This document shows, one piece after another, positions 3,001 to 44,433 of a DNA stretch of 64,000 nt. Each line of letters begins with the position of its first letter. Positions within the stretch are counted from its first letter, which is position 1. The stretch covers positions 72,338 to 136,337 of the forward strand of contig JAZDPX010000045.1 in assembly GCA_043797125.1 (NCBI GenBank), in the 5' to 3' direction. The notes below the pieces were generated by a model. That model had not been told where the DNA came from, did no database searches, and saw only the letters and a program-made list of their open reading frames with translations. The position numbers and the translations under genes are program-made. Origin of the DNA: Candidatus Omnitrophota bacterium (GTDB lineage: Bacteria > Omnitrophota > Gorgyraeia > JABMRG01 > JAFGKX01).

Positions 3001-6000
3001 TTCAGCTGTTTTTGCAACATCCGTCAAAGAACGTTCTGTTGCAATATGCTCCAGTATTTTCTTTTTGTTTTTTGTAACGGGCTTCTTTGCGTGTTGTGCG
3101 GTTGGGGTTTCTTCAAGCGCGCCTTTGGAAAAATTACCCACATAGATATCTGTAAGCTTTTCCTGCGCAATAACCTGCTCTTTTCTTATCTTTTCTCTTA
3201 GCTGCGTGTTTTGCTTTGGCAGCAATGCCTCCTGTATGCTTAATAGGAAATAGTGCGTTTTGTATTCTTGCGGCATATTTATAAGCCTGTTATTAAGCCT
3301 TGAGTAATTATCGCCAGCTATTTCTATTTTGCCTATCCCTTTAATTGTAATTGTAGCGCCTCCGCCTTGTTCTTTTTTCTCTACTTCGAATTCTATCTTG
3401 TAATATTTGCATACATATTCCTTTATTTCGTGCAGGAGAGCCAGCGGATATTCAAGGAGATTTTCATGCAGCACCAAGAGTTTATCTTTTGGTTCGGCGT
3501 GCCCAAAATAATCCAATGTTGGATGCTCCGCAGACGGTTTAAAGCTGCAGAATTCAGGCTTATCCTTTTCCGGGATATTTTTAAATAGCTCAAGAAACTT
3601 GCCCCATATTTCCTTGTCGCGTAGCGGGGTTTCTGCAAGCGCCTGGGCTGATCTCATTAATGTCTCAACGCGATTTTTATCAAGCGCTTTAATCTCAACC
3701 TGAGCTAATTCATAAGGCGCAAACCCATACCTTTCCAGTTCTATATCCTGTATGCTCAGGTATCTTTTGCCATTCCTATATATAATCCCCCTGGCGCCGC
3801 CCTTCTTACCGATTCGGGCGGAGGCGGGATTTCCTATTTTTACCTGCGGCTCAATAACAGATGATGTAATGGTTGCTTTCGCGCTGGCTGCTTTTACCTG
3901 GCCGCCTAGGGAATCCAGATAGCGAGGTACATAGCTTTCCGGTATGGTTACGGTAAAGGTTTCCTTTTCGCCTTCGCCATAGCAATCCAGTATTTTAATA
4001 TTTAACAGGTTGGCTATGCCTTGCGTCAGTTTTGATACTGCTTTCTGCTGAGCCCCTGTTAAATGATTATAATTGGTGTAAAGCTTTTCTTTTACATAAA
4101 CAAATTCTCCGCTTTCAAGATAAACACCGTGTAAAAGCACGAGTCCCAATGTATCCATTGCAGCATTTTTCGTAATTATAATCAACTCTTGGGCGTCGCC
4201 GATAAAGCTCGTCAGGCTGTGCTTGTTCTCACCCGCGGATGTGCTGCGTTGGCAATTGCCTTGCCCGCTTGCCCCATAACGGCCTATTTTTAATGTTTCC
4301 TTTAAATCAAAGCCCACTTCTGCGCTCACCGCTTCTTTCGACTTTTGTCTGCTTGTGGGTAATTTTTGTAAAGTCTTAAGTAACCCTATCATATCTGCTG
4401 CGATAATGGATTGGGGCTTATTCTGGCTTTGCAACATTTGATAAAGCGTATTAAGCCCTGTTATAATATCTGCAAGGCTGTTTTCACATCTCTCGTATAG
4501 TTTCCTGACTTCTTGTGCTTGCTCATCTAACGGGCACTGCTCAATAAGCCCTATTTCATCCATTATGCCCATTGCCTGCTTTGATATGCTGTTGTCTTTT
4601 ATTATATTTAACTTGCCCAGCAGCCCTATGGCGCCGTTGCGTTTGTTCTCGTCTAGGTTTTCCTTATCAAATCTTAACTTCTTAAGCTCATTTATGTCCT
4701 TGGAAAGTATGGCTTCTTTTAGCTGTACATCCGCGGCTCCAGCATAAAGATCTTTTAGTTTGTTTTCTAGTTTCTGTATGTCTTCTTCCGAAGCGACGCT
4801 GCTTTCCCTAAAGCTTGCGCTATATTCTCCTATATGGCGTTTATAGTTTTCAAAGTTAGTTTTAAACCATGCATCAAATATGCTAAGATTATCGTCTGGG
4901 GCCTCTGGGCTAGCTGTTTCTTTAAGTTTAGCCAGTTCACTAAATTTATCCCTTACATGATGCGGGGCCTGTTTGAATGCAAGTCTGTGCGAGGCTTTGT
5001 GCTCTATTATGCCTTGTGTTCCTTTTAAAAGGTATACCCTGGCTAGTTCGGTAAGCCTTGTGTAAGCTGCTTCACTTTCTTTGCTGTATGCTTGCCTAAA
5101 ATTAAACAAATCTACAAGAAAATCTGCGTCTGCAAGGGCTTCTGTGGCGTCGGAATGGAGTTTTCTTTTTGTTTTGCTAATTTCGCCTCCTAGCAGATCC
5201 GACAGGGAATCGCAGATAACCTCTTCAATTGATGTTTTGGAAGACGCTTCATCCATGTTGGTTAGATCCAGCCTAGCTATTTTCTGTGGGTCGTCAAGCA
5301 AATCAAGGCTGTGTTTATATTTGGCAATTAGCTCTAATTGATATATAAAAACTTTTGGCTCGCGGGATAGTTTAGAAAATAGGCCAATATAATTACATTT
5401 GTTTTCTATTTCTTGCAGGAGCGTTAGAATAGCGCTTAGTTTGCGCGATGCAGAAACCGTACTTGCGTCGTAATTATCAAATATTGTAGTAAGGTTGTAC
5501 AGATTCGCATCGCCGGGAAACAGTTGATACCACAACATAATTATTTCTAAAAAGTCGTGAATGAATTGTTTTTGCCGCTGGTAATCTCTCTGTTTGTTGA
5601 CTGAAACTAATAGCTTAAGTGTTTTACTTTCTGTTTTTGTCAACAAAGATATGCTCTCTTTCTTAAAACCTAAGCCATTTAAACAGGCCTCTGCCGCCCT
5701 GTAAGCCAGCTTGATACAGTCTTGTCGCGCAAATTGTTCATTCCAAAACCCTAAAAGCAATGCCTGAGAAAAAAGTTTTTGCGCTTTTGCCTTTTCTTTC
5801 TGGCGGGGCGCATCTAATAACTCTTTTAACTTTTTTGGCTCTGTAAAGCGTTTTATAAGCGCGGGAGTATGATTTGTAAAACTTGATAGAGCGAGAATAA
5901 AGTCTGCGTCAATCTTGGCCTCATCATAAGAATCAATAACATCTTCTATGGCATCCTTTGCCTTCTCAAAAAGCTTTGCATGCATCTGCGCTCCAGCAAG

Positions 6001-29353: not shown

Positions 29354-31930
<2,577 letters not shown>

Positions 31931-41470: not shown

Positions 41471-42015
41471 AGACGCAAAAGACGATATTGCTCGGCGTAA
41501 CAGCCAGCATAGCGGCATACAAGGCGTGCGAGATAATTAACCGGTTAAAACAGGCCGGTTTTAATGTAATAGCGTGCGTTACAAAAGACGCGCTGCATTT
41601 TATCACCCCGCTCACGCTGCAGGCGCTTTCAGGCAACAGGGTCTTTTGCGACATGTTTGAGCAGGTTGCGGAATGCAACCCCGCGCATATAAGCCTGGCC
41701 AAAAGAGCGGACCTTGTTTTAATAGCCCCGGCCACAGCGGATTGCATATCTAAAATGGCGTCGGGCATTTGCGATGATATATTAACCTGCGCGGTGGTTT
41801 CTACCAAGGCCCCGGTTTTAATAGCGCCCGCGATGAATGAGAATATGTACAAAAACAAGATTATACAGGCTAATATCGAAAAACTAAAACAGGCAGGCTT
41901 TCAATTTGTCGGGCCAAAAAAGGGGAGGCTTGCCTGTGGCGAATGGGGCGTGGGCCACATTGCGGATGTTTCCGAGATAATCAAGGAAACAAAAAAGATA
42001 TGCGCATTCTCATAA
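41467..42015 (+). CDS. coaC: phosphopantothenoylcysteine decarboxylase (flavoprotein; CoaC domain)
   Basis: Flavoprotein fold motifs (GVTASIAAYKA, PAMNENMY). Ends 16 nt after the start of the CoaB-domain ORF, in a different frame, next to an A6 run at 41991-41996. Confidence 0.8.
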   Translation: MKTQKTILLGVTASIAAYKACEIINRLKQAGFNVIACVTKDALHFITPLTLQALSGNRVFCDMFEQVAECNPAHISLAKRADLVLIAPATADCISKMASGICDDILTCAVVSTKAPVLIAPAMNENMYKNKIIQANIEKLKQAGFQFVGPKKGRLACGEWGVGHIADVSEIIKETKKICAFS

Positions 42016-42746
42016 CAGCAGGCCCCACCAGGGAATTTATTGACCCAGTGAGATATATCTCAAATTTATCGACGGGCAACATGGGGTACGCGATAGCAAG
42101 GCGCGCTAAAAACAAAAAGCATAAAGTTACCCTTGTGTCAGGCCCGGTTGGCCTTAAGCCACCGGAAGGTATCAGGGTTATCGAATGCGTTAGCGCAAAC
42201 GATATGTTCAGGGCGGTAAAAAAGGAATTTAAAAAAACAGATTGTCTGGTTATGTCCGCCGCGGTCAGCGATTTCAGGCCAGAGATAAAGCATAAAGAAA
42301 AGATAAAAAAGCAGAAGCCCCCCAACGGCAGAAAATTGGCGTTGGTGCAGACCCCAGACATACTCGCGTGGGCGGGCAAAAACAAGGCCGACAAAACAAT
42401 AGTCGGTTTTTGCTTAGAGACAAGCTCTTTGACGCAAAACGCGAAAAGAAAACTAGAGGAAAAAAACGCGGATATAATAGTAGCGAACCAAATAGATAAA
42501 AATTTTTCCGCATTTGGTTTCGGCAAGACAAAGGTTTTGGTAATTGGAAAAGGCGGCAGCGTCGAGAAAATCGGCCCTAGCACGAAAGAAAAAATAGCAG
42601 AAATTCTGCTCGAGAGAATAGAAAAACTTTGGCATAACGGCCGTTTCGCGGAGGCAAAGGTCCCTCACCCCGAAGCGCCGGGGTCCGGGACAAATTTTCC
42701 GAAAAATAAAGCCGTAGAAAATTTGGCGGCGTACCCAAGAGGCTAA
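42000..42746 (+). CDS. coaB: phosphopantothenate--cysteine ligase (CoaB domain)
   Basis: MRILITAGPTREFIDPVRYISNLSTGNMG matches the CoaB N-terminus. The 3' end reads into tRNA-Cys. One extra A in the A6 run would fuse it to coaC as a canonical CoaBC. Confidence 0.8.
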   Translation: MRILITAGPTREFIDPVRYISNLSTGNMGYAIARRAKNKKHKVTLVSGPVGLKPPEGIRVIECVSANDMFRAVKKEFKKTDCLVMSAAVSDFRPEIKHKEKIKKQKPPNGRKLALVQTPDILAWAGKNKADKTIVGFCLETSSLTQNAKRKLEEKNADIIVANQIDKNFSAFGFGKTKVLVIGKGGSVEKIGPSTKEKIAEILLERIEKLWHNGRFAEAKVPHPEAPGSGTNFPKNKAVENLAAYPRG

Positions 42747-42800
42747 GGGAAGAGTCTGCAAAACTCTGATGCAGCGGTTCGACTCCGCTCGCCGCCTCCA
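42725..42800 (+). tRNA. tRNA-Cys (anticodon GCA)
   Basis: GGCGGCGTACCCAAGAGGCTAAGGGAAGAGTCTGCAAAACTCTGATGCAGCGGTTCGACTCCGCTCGCCGCCTCCA. Anticodon loop CUGCAAA, U73 discriminator, encoded CCA. Confidence 0.8.
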
Positions 42801-42947
42801 GTTTTGCCCTAGCCAACATTAGGCAAAACTGCCCGAGGAGCCCCGAAGCACCGGGATGACGAGAGACAATGAGGAACACAAACATTAAGCCCCTCCGGCG
42901 CTCCCATAAAGTCGTGCCGTCGGGACAAAGTTTACTTCGTAAACTTT

Positions 42948-43024
42948 GGGCGGTTAGCTCAGTTGGTTAGAGTGCTTCCTTGACATGGAAGAGGTCACAG
43001 GTTCGAGCCCTGTACCGCCCACCA
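42948..43024 (+). tRNA. tRNA-Val (anticodon GAC)
   Basis: GGGCGGTTAGCTCAGTTGGTTAGAGTGCTTCCTTGACATGGAAGAGGTCACAGGTTCGAGCCCTGTACCGCCCACCA. Clean cloverleaf with A73 and encoded CCA. Confidence 0.9.
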
Positions 43025-43066
43025 GCTTGCACGAGCGTGGGTGCAGGCAAACTGTCCCGAGGAACG

Positions 43067-43086
43067 CCTGCCTGCCGGCAGGCAGG
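43067..43086. repeat. 20-bp perfect palindrome CCTGCCTGCCGGCAGGCAGG (REP-like family, copy 1), nested in a longer hairpin tgtccc...gggaca
   Basis: Same 20-mer at 46836-46855 and 53928-53947; degenerate copy at 53975-53994. Confidence 0.8.
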
Positions 43087-43099
43087 AAGCGACGAGGGA

Positions 43100-43393
43100 C
43101 ATTCATCAGTGGATATTAAACATTATTTCTACATAGCAAGATGCAACGATGGCTCTTTATATTCCGGCGCAACCAAAAACGTAGAAGCAAGAATTAATAG
43201 GCACAATCAAGGCAAGGGCGGTAAATACACTCGTGGCCGGAAACCCATAACGTTGGTTTACAAGGAAGAATTTAGCAGTTTGTTATTAGCGCGCAGGCGC
43301 GAAAGCGAAGTAAAGAGTTGGGGGCGTAAGAAGAAGGAAGAGCTTATTGAGGCGGCAGGTTTCCCTCGGCCTATGGCCTCGGGACTAATGTAG
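43100..43393 (+). CDS. small GIY-YIG nuclease-family protein (UPF0213/YhbQ-like); GTG start
   Basis: VDIKHYFYIARCNDGSLYSGATKNVEARINRHNQGKGGKYTRGRKPITLVY... matches GIY-YIG (YIG, YTRGRRP-like). The track ORF start at 42980 runs through tRNA-Val and is not credible. Confidence 0.7.
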   Translation, partial: HSSVDIKHYFYIARCNDGSLYSGATKNVEARINRHNQGKGGKYTRGRKPITLVYKEEFSSLLLARRRESEVKSWGRKKKEELIEAAGFPRPMASGLM

Positions 43394-43420
43394 CCTATAT
43401 AGAAGCAAAAGCTCCATTAG

Positions 43421-43441
43421 CGAGCCCTGTACCGCCCACCA
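43421..43441. repeat. 21-bp direct repeat of the tRNA-Val 3' end (CGAGCCCTGTACCGCCCACCA); att-like duplication bounding the GIY-YIG insert
   Basis: Identical to 43004-43024. Confidence 0.85.
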
Positions 43442-43492
43442 TCCGCCTTCGTGTATTGGGCTAGGTTCGTAGTAGATAGCCTTCGGCGGATT
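43442..43492. mobile_element. second copy of the MITE-like ~52-nt element (ATCCGCC...GGCGGAT), followed by ~130 nt with further inverted repeats (ttcgtagtagata / tatctactacgaa)
   Basis: Near-identical to 29374-29425, with one G/C difference. Confidence 0.6.
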
Positions 43493-43625
43493 TTAATCCG
43501 CCGCATGTTATCTGCTATGAACCGCAGAAGCAAAGTAGGCGGATGAGCCCGCCGTACGTTATCTACTACGAAGCTCAAAAGCCAGGAAGGCGGGCCAGAA
43601 AACAAAGCAGCTTTTTGCAGGGCGA

Positions 43626-44381
43626 GTGGTGAAATGGCAGACACGAAGGACTATTATGAAACGCGCTAGCGGCGATGAAACAAAATATAGCTTGCTATTT
43701 AAGAACAAACACTTTTGGTATTTAGTAGGCTTGGTTACCGCAGATGGTAGTTTGAGTAAAGACAAAAGGCATATAGATATTACCTCTAAAGATAAAAAGT
43801 ATTTAGAAGACTTGAAAACGTGTTTTAATTTAGATAATCGTGTTGCTATGAAGAACAAAAATAAGAAAAACGTAGCATACCGCATCCAACTAGGCAGTAA
43901 GCTCCTGTGGAACTTTTTATATTGTATAGGCTTAATGCCAAGAAAGACACACGAACTGATGTCGGTTAATGTCCCGGCAACCAAATTTAGAGATTTTTTG
44001 CGAGGGTTTATTGATGGCGACGGCAATATCCAGAGCTGGATAAATAATAGAAACGGGCACAGGCAATGGTCCTTAAGAATGAAAATTCTATCAGGCGCTT
44101 TTGCCAAATGGCTTTGTAAAGCAACAGAATATTATGTAGGAGCCAAAGGCCGCTTGCATCTTGAGAGCAAAGAAAACAGGCAAGACATATATGTGTTGAA
44201 GTTTGGCAAGCTTTCTGCGAGGCACATACTTAAAAGATGTTATTATAAAGGCGCTTTCGCATATTACAGAAAACGTAGCCTTGCGCTGCAATGTTTATCT
44301 AGCGAAACAGGTTGGTCAACGCATAGCAGCGTTTTAACAAAAGCGCCGGGATGCTGGAATTGGCATACAGTGCAGACTTAA
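43626..44381 (+). CDS. LAGLIDADG-family homing-endonuclease-like protein (two LAGLIDADG motifs)
   Basis: YLVGLVTADGSL and FLRGFIDGDGNI motifs. Alternative start at 43656. The ORF reads into tRNA-Leu and its TAA stop is the tRNA anticodon. Confidence 0.65.
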   Translation: MVKWQTRRTIMKRASGDETKYSLLFKNKHFWYLVGLVTADGSLSKDKRHIDITSKDKKYLEDLKTCFNLDNRVAMKNKNKKNVAYRIQLGSKLLWNFLYCIGLMPRKTHELMSVNVPATKFRDFLRGFIDGDGNIQSWINNRNGHRQWSLRMKILSGAFAKWLCKATEYYVGAKGRLHLESKENRQDIYVLKFGKLSARHILKRCYYKGAFAYYRKRSLALQCLSSETGWSTHSSVLTKAPGCWNWHTVQT

Positions 44382-44433
44382 AATCTGCTGGAGCTTAGTC
44401 TCCGTGTGGGTTCAAGTCCCACTCCCGGCACCA
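44345..44433 (+). tRNA. tRNA-Leu (anticodon UAA), long variable arm
   Basis: GCCGGGATGCTGGAATTGGCATACAGTGCAGACTTAAAATCTGCTGGAGCTTAGTCTCCGTGTGGGTTCAAGTCCCACTCCCGGCACCA. Anticodon stem gcaga/tctgc, loop CUUAAAA. Confidence 0.8.

Follow-up and report, generated by a model that had tools for sequence, protein, structure and literature searches.

What has brought a GIY-YIG gene and a LAGLIDADG gene together between two tRNA genes, and why are both accompanied by pieces of tRNA genes? These questions are raised by a tRNA locus in a 64,000-nucleotide stretch of a Candidatus Omnitrophota contig (the window), in which the genes are arranged in the order tRNA-Cys, tRNA-Val, GIY-YIG gene, LAGLIDADG gene, tRNA-Leu and thrS (Cys-Val-GIY-LAGL-Leu-thrS; Table 1). 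The answer proposed here, to which a probability of roughly 0.6 is assigned, is that the locus contains two independent free-standing homing-type nuclease genes, each specialised on a tRNA gene, and that the partial tRNA copies are the scars of insertion and repair. It is highly probable that both genes belong to tRNA-linked families, that both are associated with insertion scars and that the LAGLIDADG gene shows presence/absence polymorphism. That both are, or recently were, active homing-type elements is probable, with considerable room for doubt; the nuclease activity, the cleavage positions and the repair route are inferred from sequence.

A first-pass annotation had described the locus as a selfish-element islet, in which the 21-nt end of tRNA-Val recurs behind a 396-bp insert that carries a small GIY-YIG gene as its sole protein gene, followed by a two-motif LAGLIDADG open reading frame (ORF) stopping on the TAA anticodon of tRNA-Leu(UAA). 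The exact repeat, the Pfam matches of both proteins and the tRNA calls bear out these observations, and the islet reading is largely right. Corrections are needed with respect to the overlap with tRNA-Leu, the type of the GIY-YIG protein, the mechanism of integration and the label MITE (miniature inverted-repeat transposable element). The related suggestion of a hotspot for two nuclease families holds in the sense of a site of selfish DNA, but not as a purely local accident, since the LAGLIDADG family is a family-wide resident of the tRNA-Cys/tRNA-Leu spacer.

The GIY-YIG cassette behind tRNA-Val

Exactly two exact copies of CGAGCCCTGTACCGCCCACCA, the 3' end of the intact tRNA-Val gene, were found, separated by 396 nt. 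An exact repeat of 21 nt is not expected by chance in a region of 2.5 kb, the probability being of the order of 1e-6 by our own estimate. The cassette enclosed by the two copies contains neither an integrase nor an integrase fragment, and with 396 nt it is too small for a recombinase-sized ORF. The GIY-YIG gene is the sole cassette ORF with a Pfam match; the other ORFs of at least 30 aa are short overlapping frames, which lay outside the Pfam test. The imperfect hairpin near the right end of the cassette overlaps the end of the GIY-YIG ORF. A YCCCGAG...GAGGGR hairpin, similar to the palindrome upstream of this ORF, also precedes the GIY-YIG ORF in the related loci L166 and L170.

The encoded protein, which is 100% identical to a protein annotated by NCBI (P0121), is a stand-alone GIY-YIG domain of the UPF0213/YhbQ type. 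Its best sequence matches in the PDB are BH0048 (PDB entry 1zg2, E=3.6e-20 for residues 3-87) and EF2693 (PDB entry 1ywl, E=7e-16), which likewise consist of little else than a GIY-YIG core of about 90 aa and resemble the window protein over its whole length. Residues Y8, Y18, R28, H32 and E65 are invariant in the GIY-YIG alignment (A3). The protein does not contain a C-terminal DNA-binding domain: its core occupies residues 4-76 of 94, and the proteins that match it best are likewise bare UPF0213 domains (96-107 aa). In this one defining respect it departs from the classical GIY-YIG homing enzymes.

The genomic context of the gene was inspected in the window and in seven related loci, whose proteins show 28-64% identity. 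In seven of these eight loci the gene lies directly 3' of a tRNA gene. A counterpart of the window cassette is found in L166, between V-ATPase genes and tRNA-Asp, where tRNA-Val(UAC) is followed by a hairpin, the GIY-YIG gene, a second hairpin and CGAGACCTGCACCGCCtACCA, which agrees with the tRNA 3' end in 20 of 21 nt and starts at the same T-loop base as the window repeat. The two cassettes can be aligned over their full length, noncoding ends and the junction CAT(T/C)AG|CGAG included (alignment A2), and yet the tRNA-Val genes differ and the gene contexts are different as well. This homologous cassette with its same-start repeat supports the earlier description of the insert as a small mobile cassette at a tRNA 3' end. 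In L170, too, the gene follows a tRNA; the bounding repeat has a first part of about 16 nt, which begins in the T-loop, and a further block in the flank downstream. In L062 (4352-4910) an older tRNA-Val is present as two partial copies that overlap and have a 42-nt hairpin insert in the D loop in common; an intact tRNA-Val and the GIY-YIG gene have been inserted between them. The upstream copy is broken at the boundary between T-stem and T-loop, and the repeat measures about 69 nt.

A repeat is missing from L069, L169 and L172, in which the gene lies directly 3' of tRNA-Val, of a tRNA 3' end and of tRNA-Ser, respectively; in L171 the gene is not located 3' of a tRNA on the same strand. Repeat-less copies of the gene in another context, which the first-pass annotation had named as evidence of coincidence, are therefore present among the relatives. 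On the other side, the tRNA linkage and the repeat both recur elsewhere, and for this reason the window repeat is not regarded as coincidental.

Hairpin-rich inserts of 115-350 nt without a protein gene were observed at tRNA genes in L050 (3317-3770), L014, L038, L070, L073 and L077. They are bracketed by 14-24-nt copies of the 3' ends of tRNA-Val, Asp, Gly or Leu, nearly all of which start in or at the T-loop, and L050 contains three consecutive copies of a tRNA-Val end. Such inserts could be what remains of decayed cassettes, or they could form a class of miniature elements directed at tRNA genes.

Two mechanisms fit the repeat, and the site-specific integration claimed earlier is one of them; the claim was thus right about the tRNA 3'-end repeat and one-sided about its origin. 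In the case of integration, a tyrosine integrase acting in trans would have made the 21-bp repeat, and the cassette would be either a non-autonomous mini-element or what is left of a larger island, with the GIY-YIG gene as cargo. Repeats that extend from the T-loop as far as the 3' end of the tRNA, with an intact tRNA on one side, are the classical signature of tRNA-targeted tyrosine-integrase islands (attL/attR), and the TΨC loop is said, following work by Williams in 2002, to be one known crossover sublocation of the integrases concerned. Similar repeats also occur around the gene-less inserts described above. In contrast to such islands, however, the window insert consists of 396 bp with a single nuclease gene and no trace of an integrase. 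Moreover, the window and L166 cassettes are homologous throughout, so that the 400-bp unit itself recurs, and the length of the repeat varies from locus to locus, which fits repair better than a fixed crossover core. An integrase in trans is considered unlikely on this evidence. The variable repeat length and the structure of L062 favour a nuclease-driven route, which is rated somewhat above the integrase; its serious weak point is that the protein is a bare domain of 94 aa.

The LAGLIDADG gene, its home site and the relic of tRNA-Leu

The predicted LAGLIDADG endonuclease contains the motifs LVGLVTADG and LRGFIDGDG, whose catalytic residues, D30 and D122, show no variation among 40 diverse homologues. 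A lack of catalytic acidic residues and of conservation had earlier been named as a possible argument against this ORF; the residues are kept and the family is conserved. An AlphaFold2 model of the protein (predicted local distance difference test score (pLDDT) 89.7, predicted template modelling score (pTM) 0.86) shows a double-domain αββαββα arrangement, with residues 229-241, the tail encoded by the tRNA gene, as its only part of low confidence, which is predicted to be disordered. The top Foldseek match is I-Tsp061I (E=8e-12, TM 0.71), and the best match by sequence is to the same enzyme (PDB entry 2dch, E=6e-15). The top 50 Foldseek matches in the PDB all have the LAGLIDADG fold and are mostly homing enzymes and endonuclease domains of inteins, with WhiA and the bI3 maturase at lower ranks. 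Like the archaeal, rRNA-intron-encoded enzymes I-Tsp061I and I-DmoI, the window protein is a single chain with two LAGLIDADG motifs; it differs from I-Tsp061I in sequence (about 19% identity), and its gene is bacterial, lies outside an intron and is flanked by tRNA genes. Compared with its relatives the window copy is unusually divergent, with 41-49% identity as against 64-71% for ThrS, while every invariant residue is kept.

A protein search returned 202 LAGLIDADG homologues, which, save for an identical NCBI protein (P0001) and one short fragment, are at most 50% identical to the window protein (most 36-50%). In a scan of one genome per species, relatives were found in 189 species-level genomes, of which the 80 best were inspected at the locus level. 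In about 70 of these 80 loci the ORF is located between tRNA-Cys(GCA) and tRNA-Leu(UAA), its ATG following the end of tRNA-Cys most often after 6-20 nt. The 80 loci belong mostly to Omnitrophota, among which metagenome-assembled genomes labelled Planctomycetia are counted according to our own reading of the labels, and further to several Patescibacteria (Saccharibacteria and the Andersen-, Giovannoni-, Doudna-, Sungii- and Taylorbacteria groups), one Armatimonadota and a few genomes labelled Deltaproteobacteria or Pseudomonadota. The same Cys-Leu site is thus used by the gene in several phyla. In Escherichia coli K-12 the corresponding genes are arranged as glyW, cysT, a 12-nt spacer and leuZ(UAA), and the pairing of cysT and leuZ is ancient.

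In the window, the last 12 codons of the LAGLIDADG ORF and its TAA stop (44379-44381) are encoded by the 5' half of the resident tRNA-Leu, into which the frame extends for 34 nt. A census of 81 loci, the window included, puts this overlap into perspective. The ORF stops 0-46 nt (median 7) before tRNA-Leu in 53 loci, elsewhere within the tRNA in 7, and beyond it, after reading through the whole tRNA, in 12; in three loci tRNA-Leu is split by a group I intron and one locus is cut by a contig end. A stop on the anticodon itself occurs in five loci only (the window, L006, L047, L077 and L080). The overlap pointed out in the first-pass annotation therefore has no special meaning, and the census together with the disordered tail rules out the coincidence of stop and anticodon as a designed feature. 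It is the result of one reading frame after loss of the native stop.

The site is not always occupied. Among the contigs whose ThrS is closest to that of the window, L092 carries the LAGLIDADG gene, and in L136 the site is empty, tRNA-Cys and tRNA-Leu being 39 nt apart. In L095 a 261-nt spacer (3636-3896) contains a truncated pseudogene, in which the first motif WYVVGVGATDGCL is kept and the rest is deleted, and in L088 the spacer of 321 nt is full of hairpins resembling repetitive extragenic palindromes (REP-like hairpins) and has no detectable LAGLIDADG remnant. The comparison with related genomes proposed earlier has thus yielded an empty, an intact and a decayed site, the three states that are predicted by the homing-endonuclease gene cycle of Goddard and Burt, and the Cys-Leu site fits this cycle. 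A close relative of the source genome was not found; since the best metagenome match to its ThrS shows 65% identity, a true pair of empty and filled alleles cannot be obtained for this genome. A phage vector for the gene was considered and rejected, as a search of IMG/VR returned only distant LAGLIDADG relatives with at most 35% identity.

The partial tRNA copy at the LAGLIDADG gene, which had been overlooked in the first-pass annotation, lies just upstream of the ORF. A truncated-tRNA Rfam search of positions 43560-43655 gave no match, and the relic was then found with a dedicated nhmmer profile (Table 1). As in a class II tRNA, it shows an acceptor strand, a D arm and an anticodon-stem strand; U33, just before the anticodon, is its last base, and the ATG of the ORF follows three bases further on. 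Its acceptor strand (GGGCGAG) differs strongly from that of the resident tRNA-Leu (GCCGGGA) and does not pair with the 3' end of the latter. Fragments of tRNA-Leu 5' ends are also present upstream of the ORF in L027 and L060 (about 33 nt), L024 (24 nt), L050 (22 nt), and L033, L075 and L007 (20-23 nt), and each of them is unlike the resident tRNA-Leu downstream; in L033, L075 and L007 the ATG in the D loop of the fragment (GGA-ATG-GCA) serves as the start codon. A fragment was found in five of the six loci with tRNA-Val or tRNA-Thr instead of tRNA-Cys upstream, compared with three of the 68 loci with tRNA-Cys (Fisher p=2e-5).

The three introns of the census offer a second view of the same tRNA position. 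In L030 (1081-1450), L040 (4668-5030) and L049 (4636-4970) a group I intron (RF00028, 65-77 bits) interrupts tRNA-Leu, with the LAGLIDADG gene just upstream of the 5' exon. By inspection the intron is placed at U33/U34, the 5' exon ending in ...GGGACT, the intron in ...CATG and the 3' exon beginning with TAAAATCCC; we take this site to be one base 5' of the classical cyanobacterial position. The window relic thus ends at the position at which tRNA-Leu is split in these loci. An intron in the window itself was rejected: Rfam gave no Intron_gpI match between 42400 and 44900 at E<=10 and only the three tRNAs, ARAGORN in intron mode (up to 1200 nt) detected no split tRNA, and the relic cannot be a 5' exon, since its acceptor strand finds no partner in the 3' end of the resident tRNA-Leu.

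The tRNA pieces might also be the junction debris of a local rearrangement without any mobility, in which a Cys-LAGL-Leu-Val-GIY block was duplicated in tandem and then reduced by deletions. This explanation draws on the gene order of L069 (Cys-LAGL-Leu-Val-GIY-thrS as against Cys-Val-GIY-LAGL-Leu-thrS in the window) and on the proximity of the tRNA-Val and tRNA-Leu pieces if the hairpin array between them is removed. The relic is, however, too unlike the resident tRNA-Leu to be a recent local duplicate, the cassette and its repeat recur in the unrelated context of L166, and the order Cys-Val-(relic)-LAGL-Leu is common to L027, L050 and L060. A rearrangement of this kind is therefore thought highly improbable.

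Extra tRNA-Cys-like 3' portions were also noted between tRNA-Cys and the ORF in L016, L041, L048, L054, L077 and L082. Some of these contain hairpin inserts of 40-65 nt in the T-loop, several share GAGTCGAAGGACAAAAC, and ARAGORN calls no tRNA for them.

A candidate mechanism and its known counterparts

The specific cleavage sites and repair routes that may underlie these structures are proposed here tentatively. The LAGLIDADG enzyme would cut alleles that lack the gene, in or beside tRNA-Leu; the end of the relic at U33 and the position of the intron at the same site make the anticodon loop the most likely region of cleavage. Repair from an allele bearing the gene would then copy the gene into the broken site, with tRNA-Cys and tRNA-Leu acting as homology arms; where both of these flanks exist, the insertion would be clean. 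In the lineage of the window, tRNA-Val rather than tRNA-Cys lies upstream, and homology for repair would be available on the tRNA-Leu side only. Such one-sided repair might strand the broken 5' half of the recipient's tRNA-Leu (positions 1-33) in front of the ORF, and the ORF, having lost its own stop, would run on into tRNA-Leu as far as the TAA of the anticodon. The GIY-YIG enzyme, or a partner, would break the tRNA gene in the TΨC loop, in the manner of SegB of phage T4. Copying of the rest of the tRNA and the cassette from the donor would restore the tRNA and push the old 21-nt 3' end downstream, where it would appear as the direct repeat.

SegB is a free-standing GIY-YIG homing endonuclease encoded in the T4 tRNA cluster, with the TΨC stem-loop sequence GGTTCRANTCC as its recognition element (PMC2330249). 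The window gene resembles it in being a GIY-YIG gene among tRNA genes, and in the start of the repeats and break points in the TΨC loop. In addition, SegB spreads together with neighbouring tRNA genes, and the unit of tRNA-Val and GIY-YIG gene in L062 seems to do likewise. The window gene differs from segB in its location on a bacterial chromosome, in encoding a 94-aa UPF0213-type domain without a DNA-binding region, and in the tRNA 3'-end repeat. For the LAGLIDADG gene the nearest parallel is the collaborative homing of phages, in which the target of a free-standing endonuclease coincides with the insertion site of an intron (PMC3984707). The window gene is similarly free-standing beside its presumed target gene, and a free-standing endonuclease gene next to an ORF-less intron at the likely target, as in L030, L040 and L049, is, by analogy, the layout of collaborative homing. 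In contrast, the known cases of intronless and collaborative homing concern protein-coding genes of phages and HNH, GIY-YIG or other enzymes (PMC3984707), whereas the LAGLIDADG gene resides in a bacterial tRNA operon and most of its loci, including the window, are without an intron.

Several observations weigh against two tRNA-specific homing nucleases. On the GIY-YIG side these are, besides the integrase-like course of the repeats and their occurrence around inserts without a GIY-YIG gene, the small size of the protein, which with 94 aa and no DNA-binding domain is unlike SegB or I-TevI; the wide distribution of UPF0213, a family not known as mobile; and the number of related loci on which the GIY-YIG contexts are based, which is just seven. 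On the LAGLIDADG side, the relic fragments end at varied positions (20-33) and define no single break point, and the proposed mechanism has no explanation for the immunity of the intact resident tRNA-Leu genes beside the ORF. In addition, a comparison of 48 loci shows the identities of LAGLIDADG and ThrS to be correlated (Spearman 0.49; mean identities of 56% and 65%, respectively); there is no pair whose LAGLIDADG proteins are much closer to each other than their ThrS, and recent horizontal homing is not visible. To judge from these identities, inheritance of the LAGLIDADG gene looks largely vertical at the sampled scale.

The same pattern would be shown by a host gene of the tRNA operon that has been domesticated, is inherited vertically and is no longer mobile, encoding for instance a DNA- or RNA-binding factor. 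The LAGLIDADG protein, tracking ThrS, is nearly as conserved as the latter; the gene occupies the same position in most loci, and a single degenerate copy was seen. Opposed to this are the patchy distribution, with empty sites and a truncated relic among the ThrS relatives, the presence of the gene at the same site in different phyla, and the association of relic tRNA-Leu fragments with non-canonical upstream neighbours. Furthermore, both catalytic aspartates are invariant, residues which are often lost in maturases and in derivatives of the WhiA type. Domestication is accordingly judged improbable, and two homing-type nuclease genes remain the preferred reading.

A more far-reaching version of this reading, which is possible but doubtful, is that both units are minimal self-contained homing cassettes, in which a nuclease gene carries with it, as a portable homology arm, a short fragment of the tRNA that it targets. 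The nuclease would break the tRNA gene (in the TΨC loop in the case of GIY-YIG, in the anticodon loop in the case of LAGLIDADG), and the flanking tRNA and the fragment would allow copying into any copy of that tRNA, in any genome and in any surroundings. If so, the cassettes would constitute a type of bacterial mobile element not described before, whose habitat is the most conserved sequences available, and the LAGLIDADG family might be the precursor of the tRNA-Leu group I intron or act as its free-standing partner.

Both proteins come from known superfamilies, and free-standing homing endonucleases, which are known chiefly from phages and organelles, are well known in phages. A literature search, with most subscription journals outside its coverage, found no account of LAGLIDADG genes in bacterial tRNA-Cys/Leu spacers or of such a family in the cysT-leuZ spacer across phyla, of the relic tRNA halves or the pairing with a tRNA-Leu intron, of a 400-bp GIY-YIG/UPF0213 cassette with tRNA 3'-end repeats, or of the UPF0213 family as tRNA-linked or repeat-flanked. 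The LAGLIDADG family appears to have colonised cysT-leuZ, which is among the most conserved gene junctions of bacteria, in hosts that are mostly uncultured, and its position beside an intron-bearing tRNA-Leu offers a natural system for the collaborative-homing route to mobile introns. If the GIY-YIG cassette is moved by its own nuclease, its 400 bp would place it among the smallest autonomous DNA elements, and a role would be assigned to part of the uncharacterised UPF0213/YhbQ family. In practical terms the enzymes would be new meganucleases with tRNA-gene targets, and the partial tRNA copies account for some of the odd tRNA fragments in metagenome-assembled genomes.

Features and surroundings of the locus

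The coordinates of the features are listed in Table 1.

Table 1. Features of the tRNA-Cys to thrS region; positions are those of the window.
Feature	Position	Strand	Evidence
coaBC-like pair	upstream of tRNA-Cys		
tRNA-Cys(GCA)	42725-42800	+	ARAGORN; Rfam tRNA 57.9 bits
tRNA-Val(GAC), intact; last 21 nt are the left repeat copy	42948-43024	+	ARAGORN; Rfam 69.1 bits
Left 21-nt repeat CGAGCCCTGTACCGCCCACCA, from C56 of the TΨC loop to the CCA end	43004-43024	+	repeat search, 100% identity
Cassette interior, 396 nt (hairpin 43025-43048, palindrome, ORF, imperfect hairpin ~43363-43383, junction ...CATTAG)	43025-43420	+	
REP-like palindrome, 47 nt, GTCCCGAGG...CGACGAGGGAC, upstream of GIY-YIG ORF	43054-43100	.	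sequence reading and fold
GIY-YIG gene, 94 aa, GTG start	43109-43393	+	Pfam PF01541 E=1.3e-17
Right 21-nt repeat, displaced tRNA-Val 3' end	43421-43441	+	repeat search
Array of three TCCGCC...GGCGGA hairpin modules, 176 nt ("MITE-like element")	43442-43617	.	inverted repeats I1, I2
Relic tRNA-Leu 5' half GGGCGAGTGGTGAAATGGCAGACACGAAGGACT, positions 1-33, 33 nt	43620-43652	+	nhmmer, profile of 77 tRNA-Leu(UAA) 5' halves, E=7.9e-5
Free-standing single-chain LAGLIDADG endonuclease gene (predicted), 241 aa from ATG	43656-44381	+	Pfam PF14528 (LAGLIDADG_3) E=1.6e-10, two stretches
tRNA-Leu(UAA), intact resident gene; anticodon 44379-44381 at gene position 35	44345-44433	+	ARAGORN; Rfam 53.2 bits
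thrS start, downstream of tRNA-Leu	44595		

The hairpin array between the cassette and the relic had been described as a copy of a MITE-like element. The array is present; its only other match in the window is a single module of 51-55 nt at 29374-29424, which is 98% identical to the start of the array, and with one partial copy the label remains weak. This module is flanked by an exact 20-bp direct repeat, TTATACGTCCAGCCTCTTTA, within positions 29354-29448, which copies the 3' end and the stop of a minus-strand gene that we take, from a hand translation alone, to be gyrB-like. On insertion, the hairpin module seems to duplicate about 20 bp of its target, a length close to that of the tRNA-Val repeat.

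REP-like YCCCGAG...CGAGGGR palindromes flank the tRNA genes of the window at 42660-42700, 42830-42880, 42900-42930 and 43054-43100. They are found in many Omnitrophota loci, for example directly after tRNA-Cys in L007, L020, L028 and L051, and may be signals for processing or termination or a dispersed repeat family. In a scan for promoters and terminators, matches were no more numerous than in shuffled sequence. Finally, the CoaB-like ORF (41943-42746) has no stop before tRNA-Cys; it crosses a REP-like hairpin and terminates 22 nt inside tRNA-Cys, and is thus, besides the LAGLIDADG ORF, the second case in the window of an ORF that ends within a tRNA gene.

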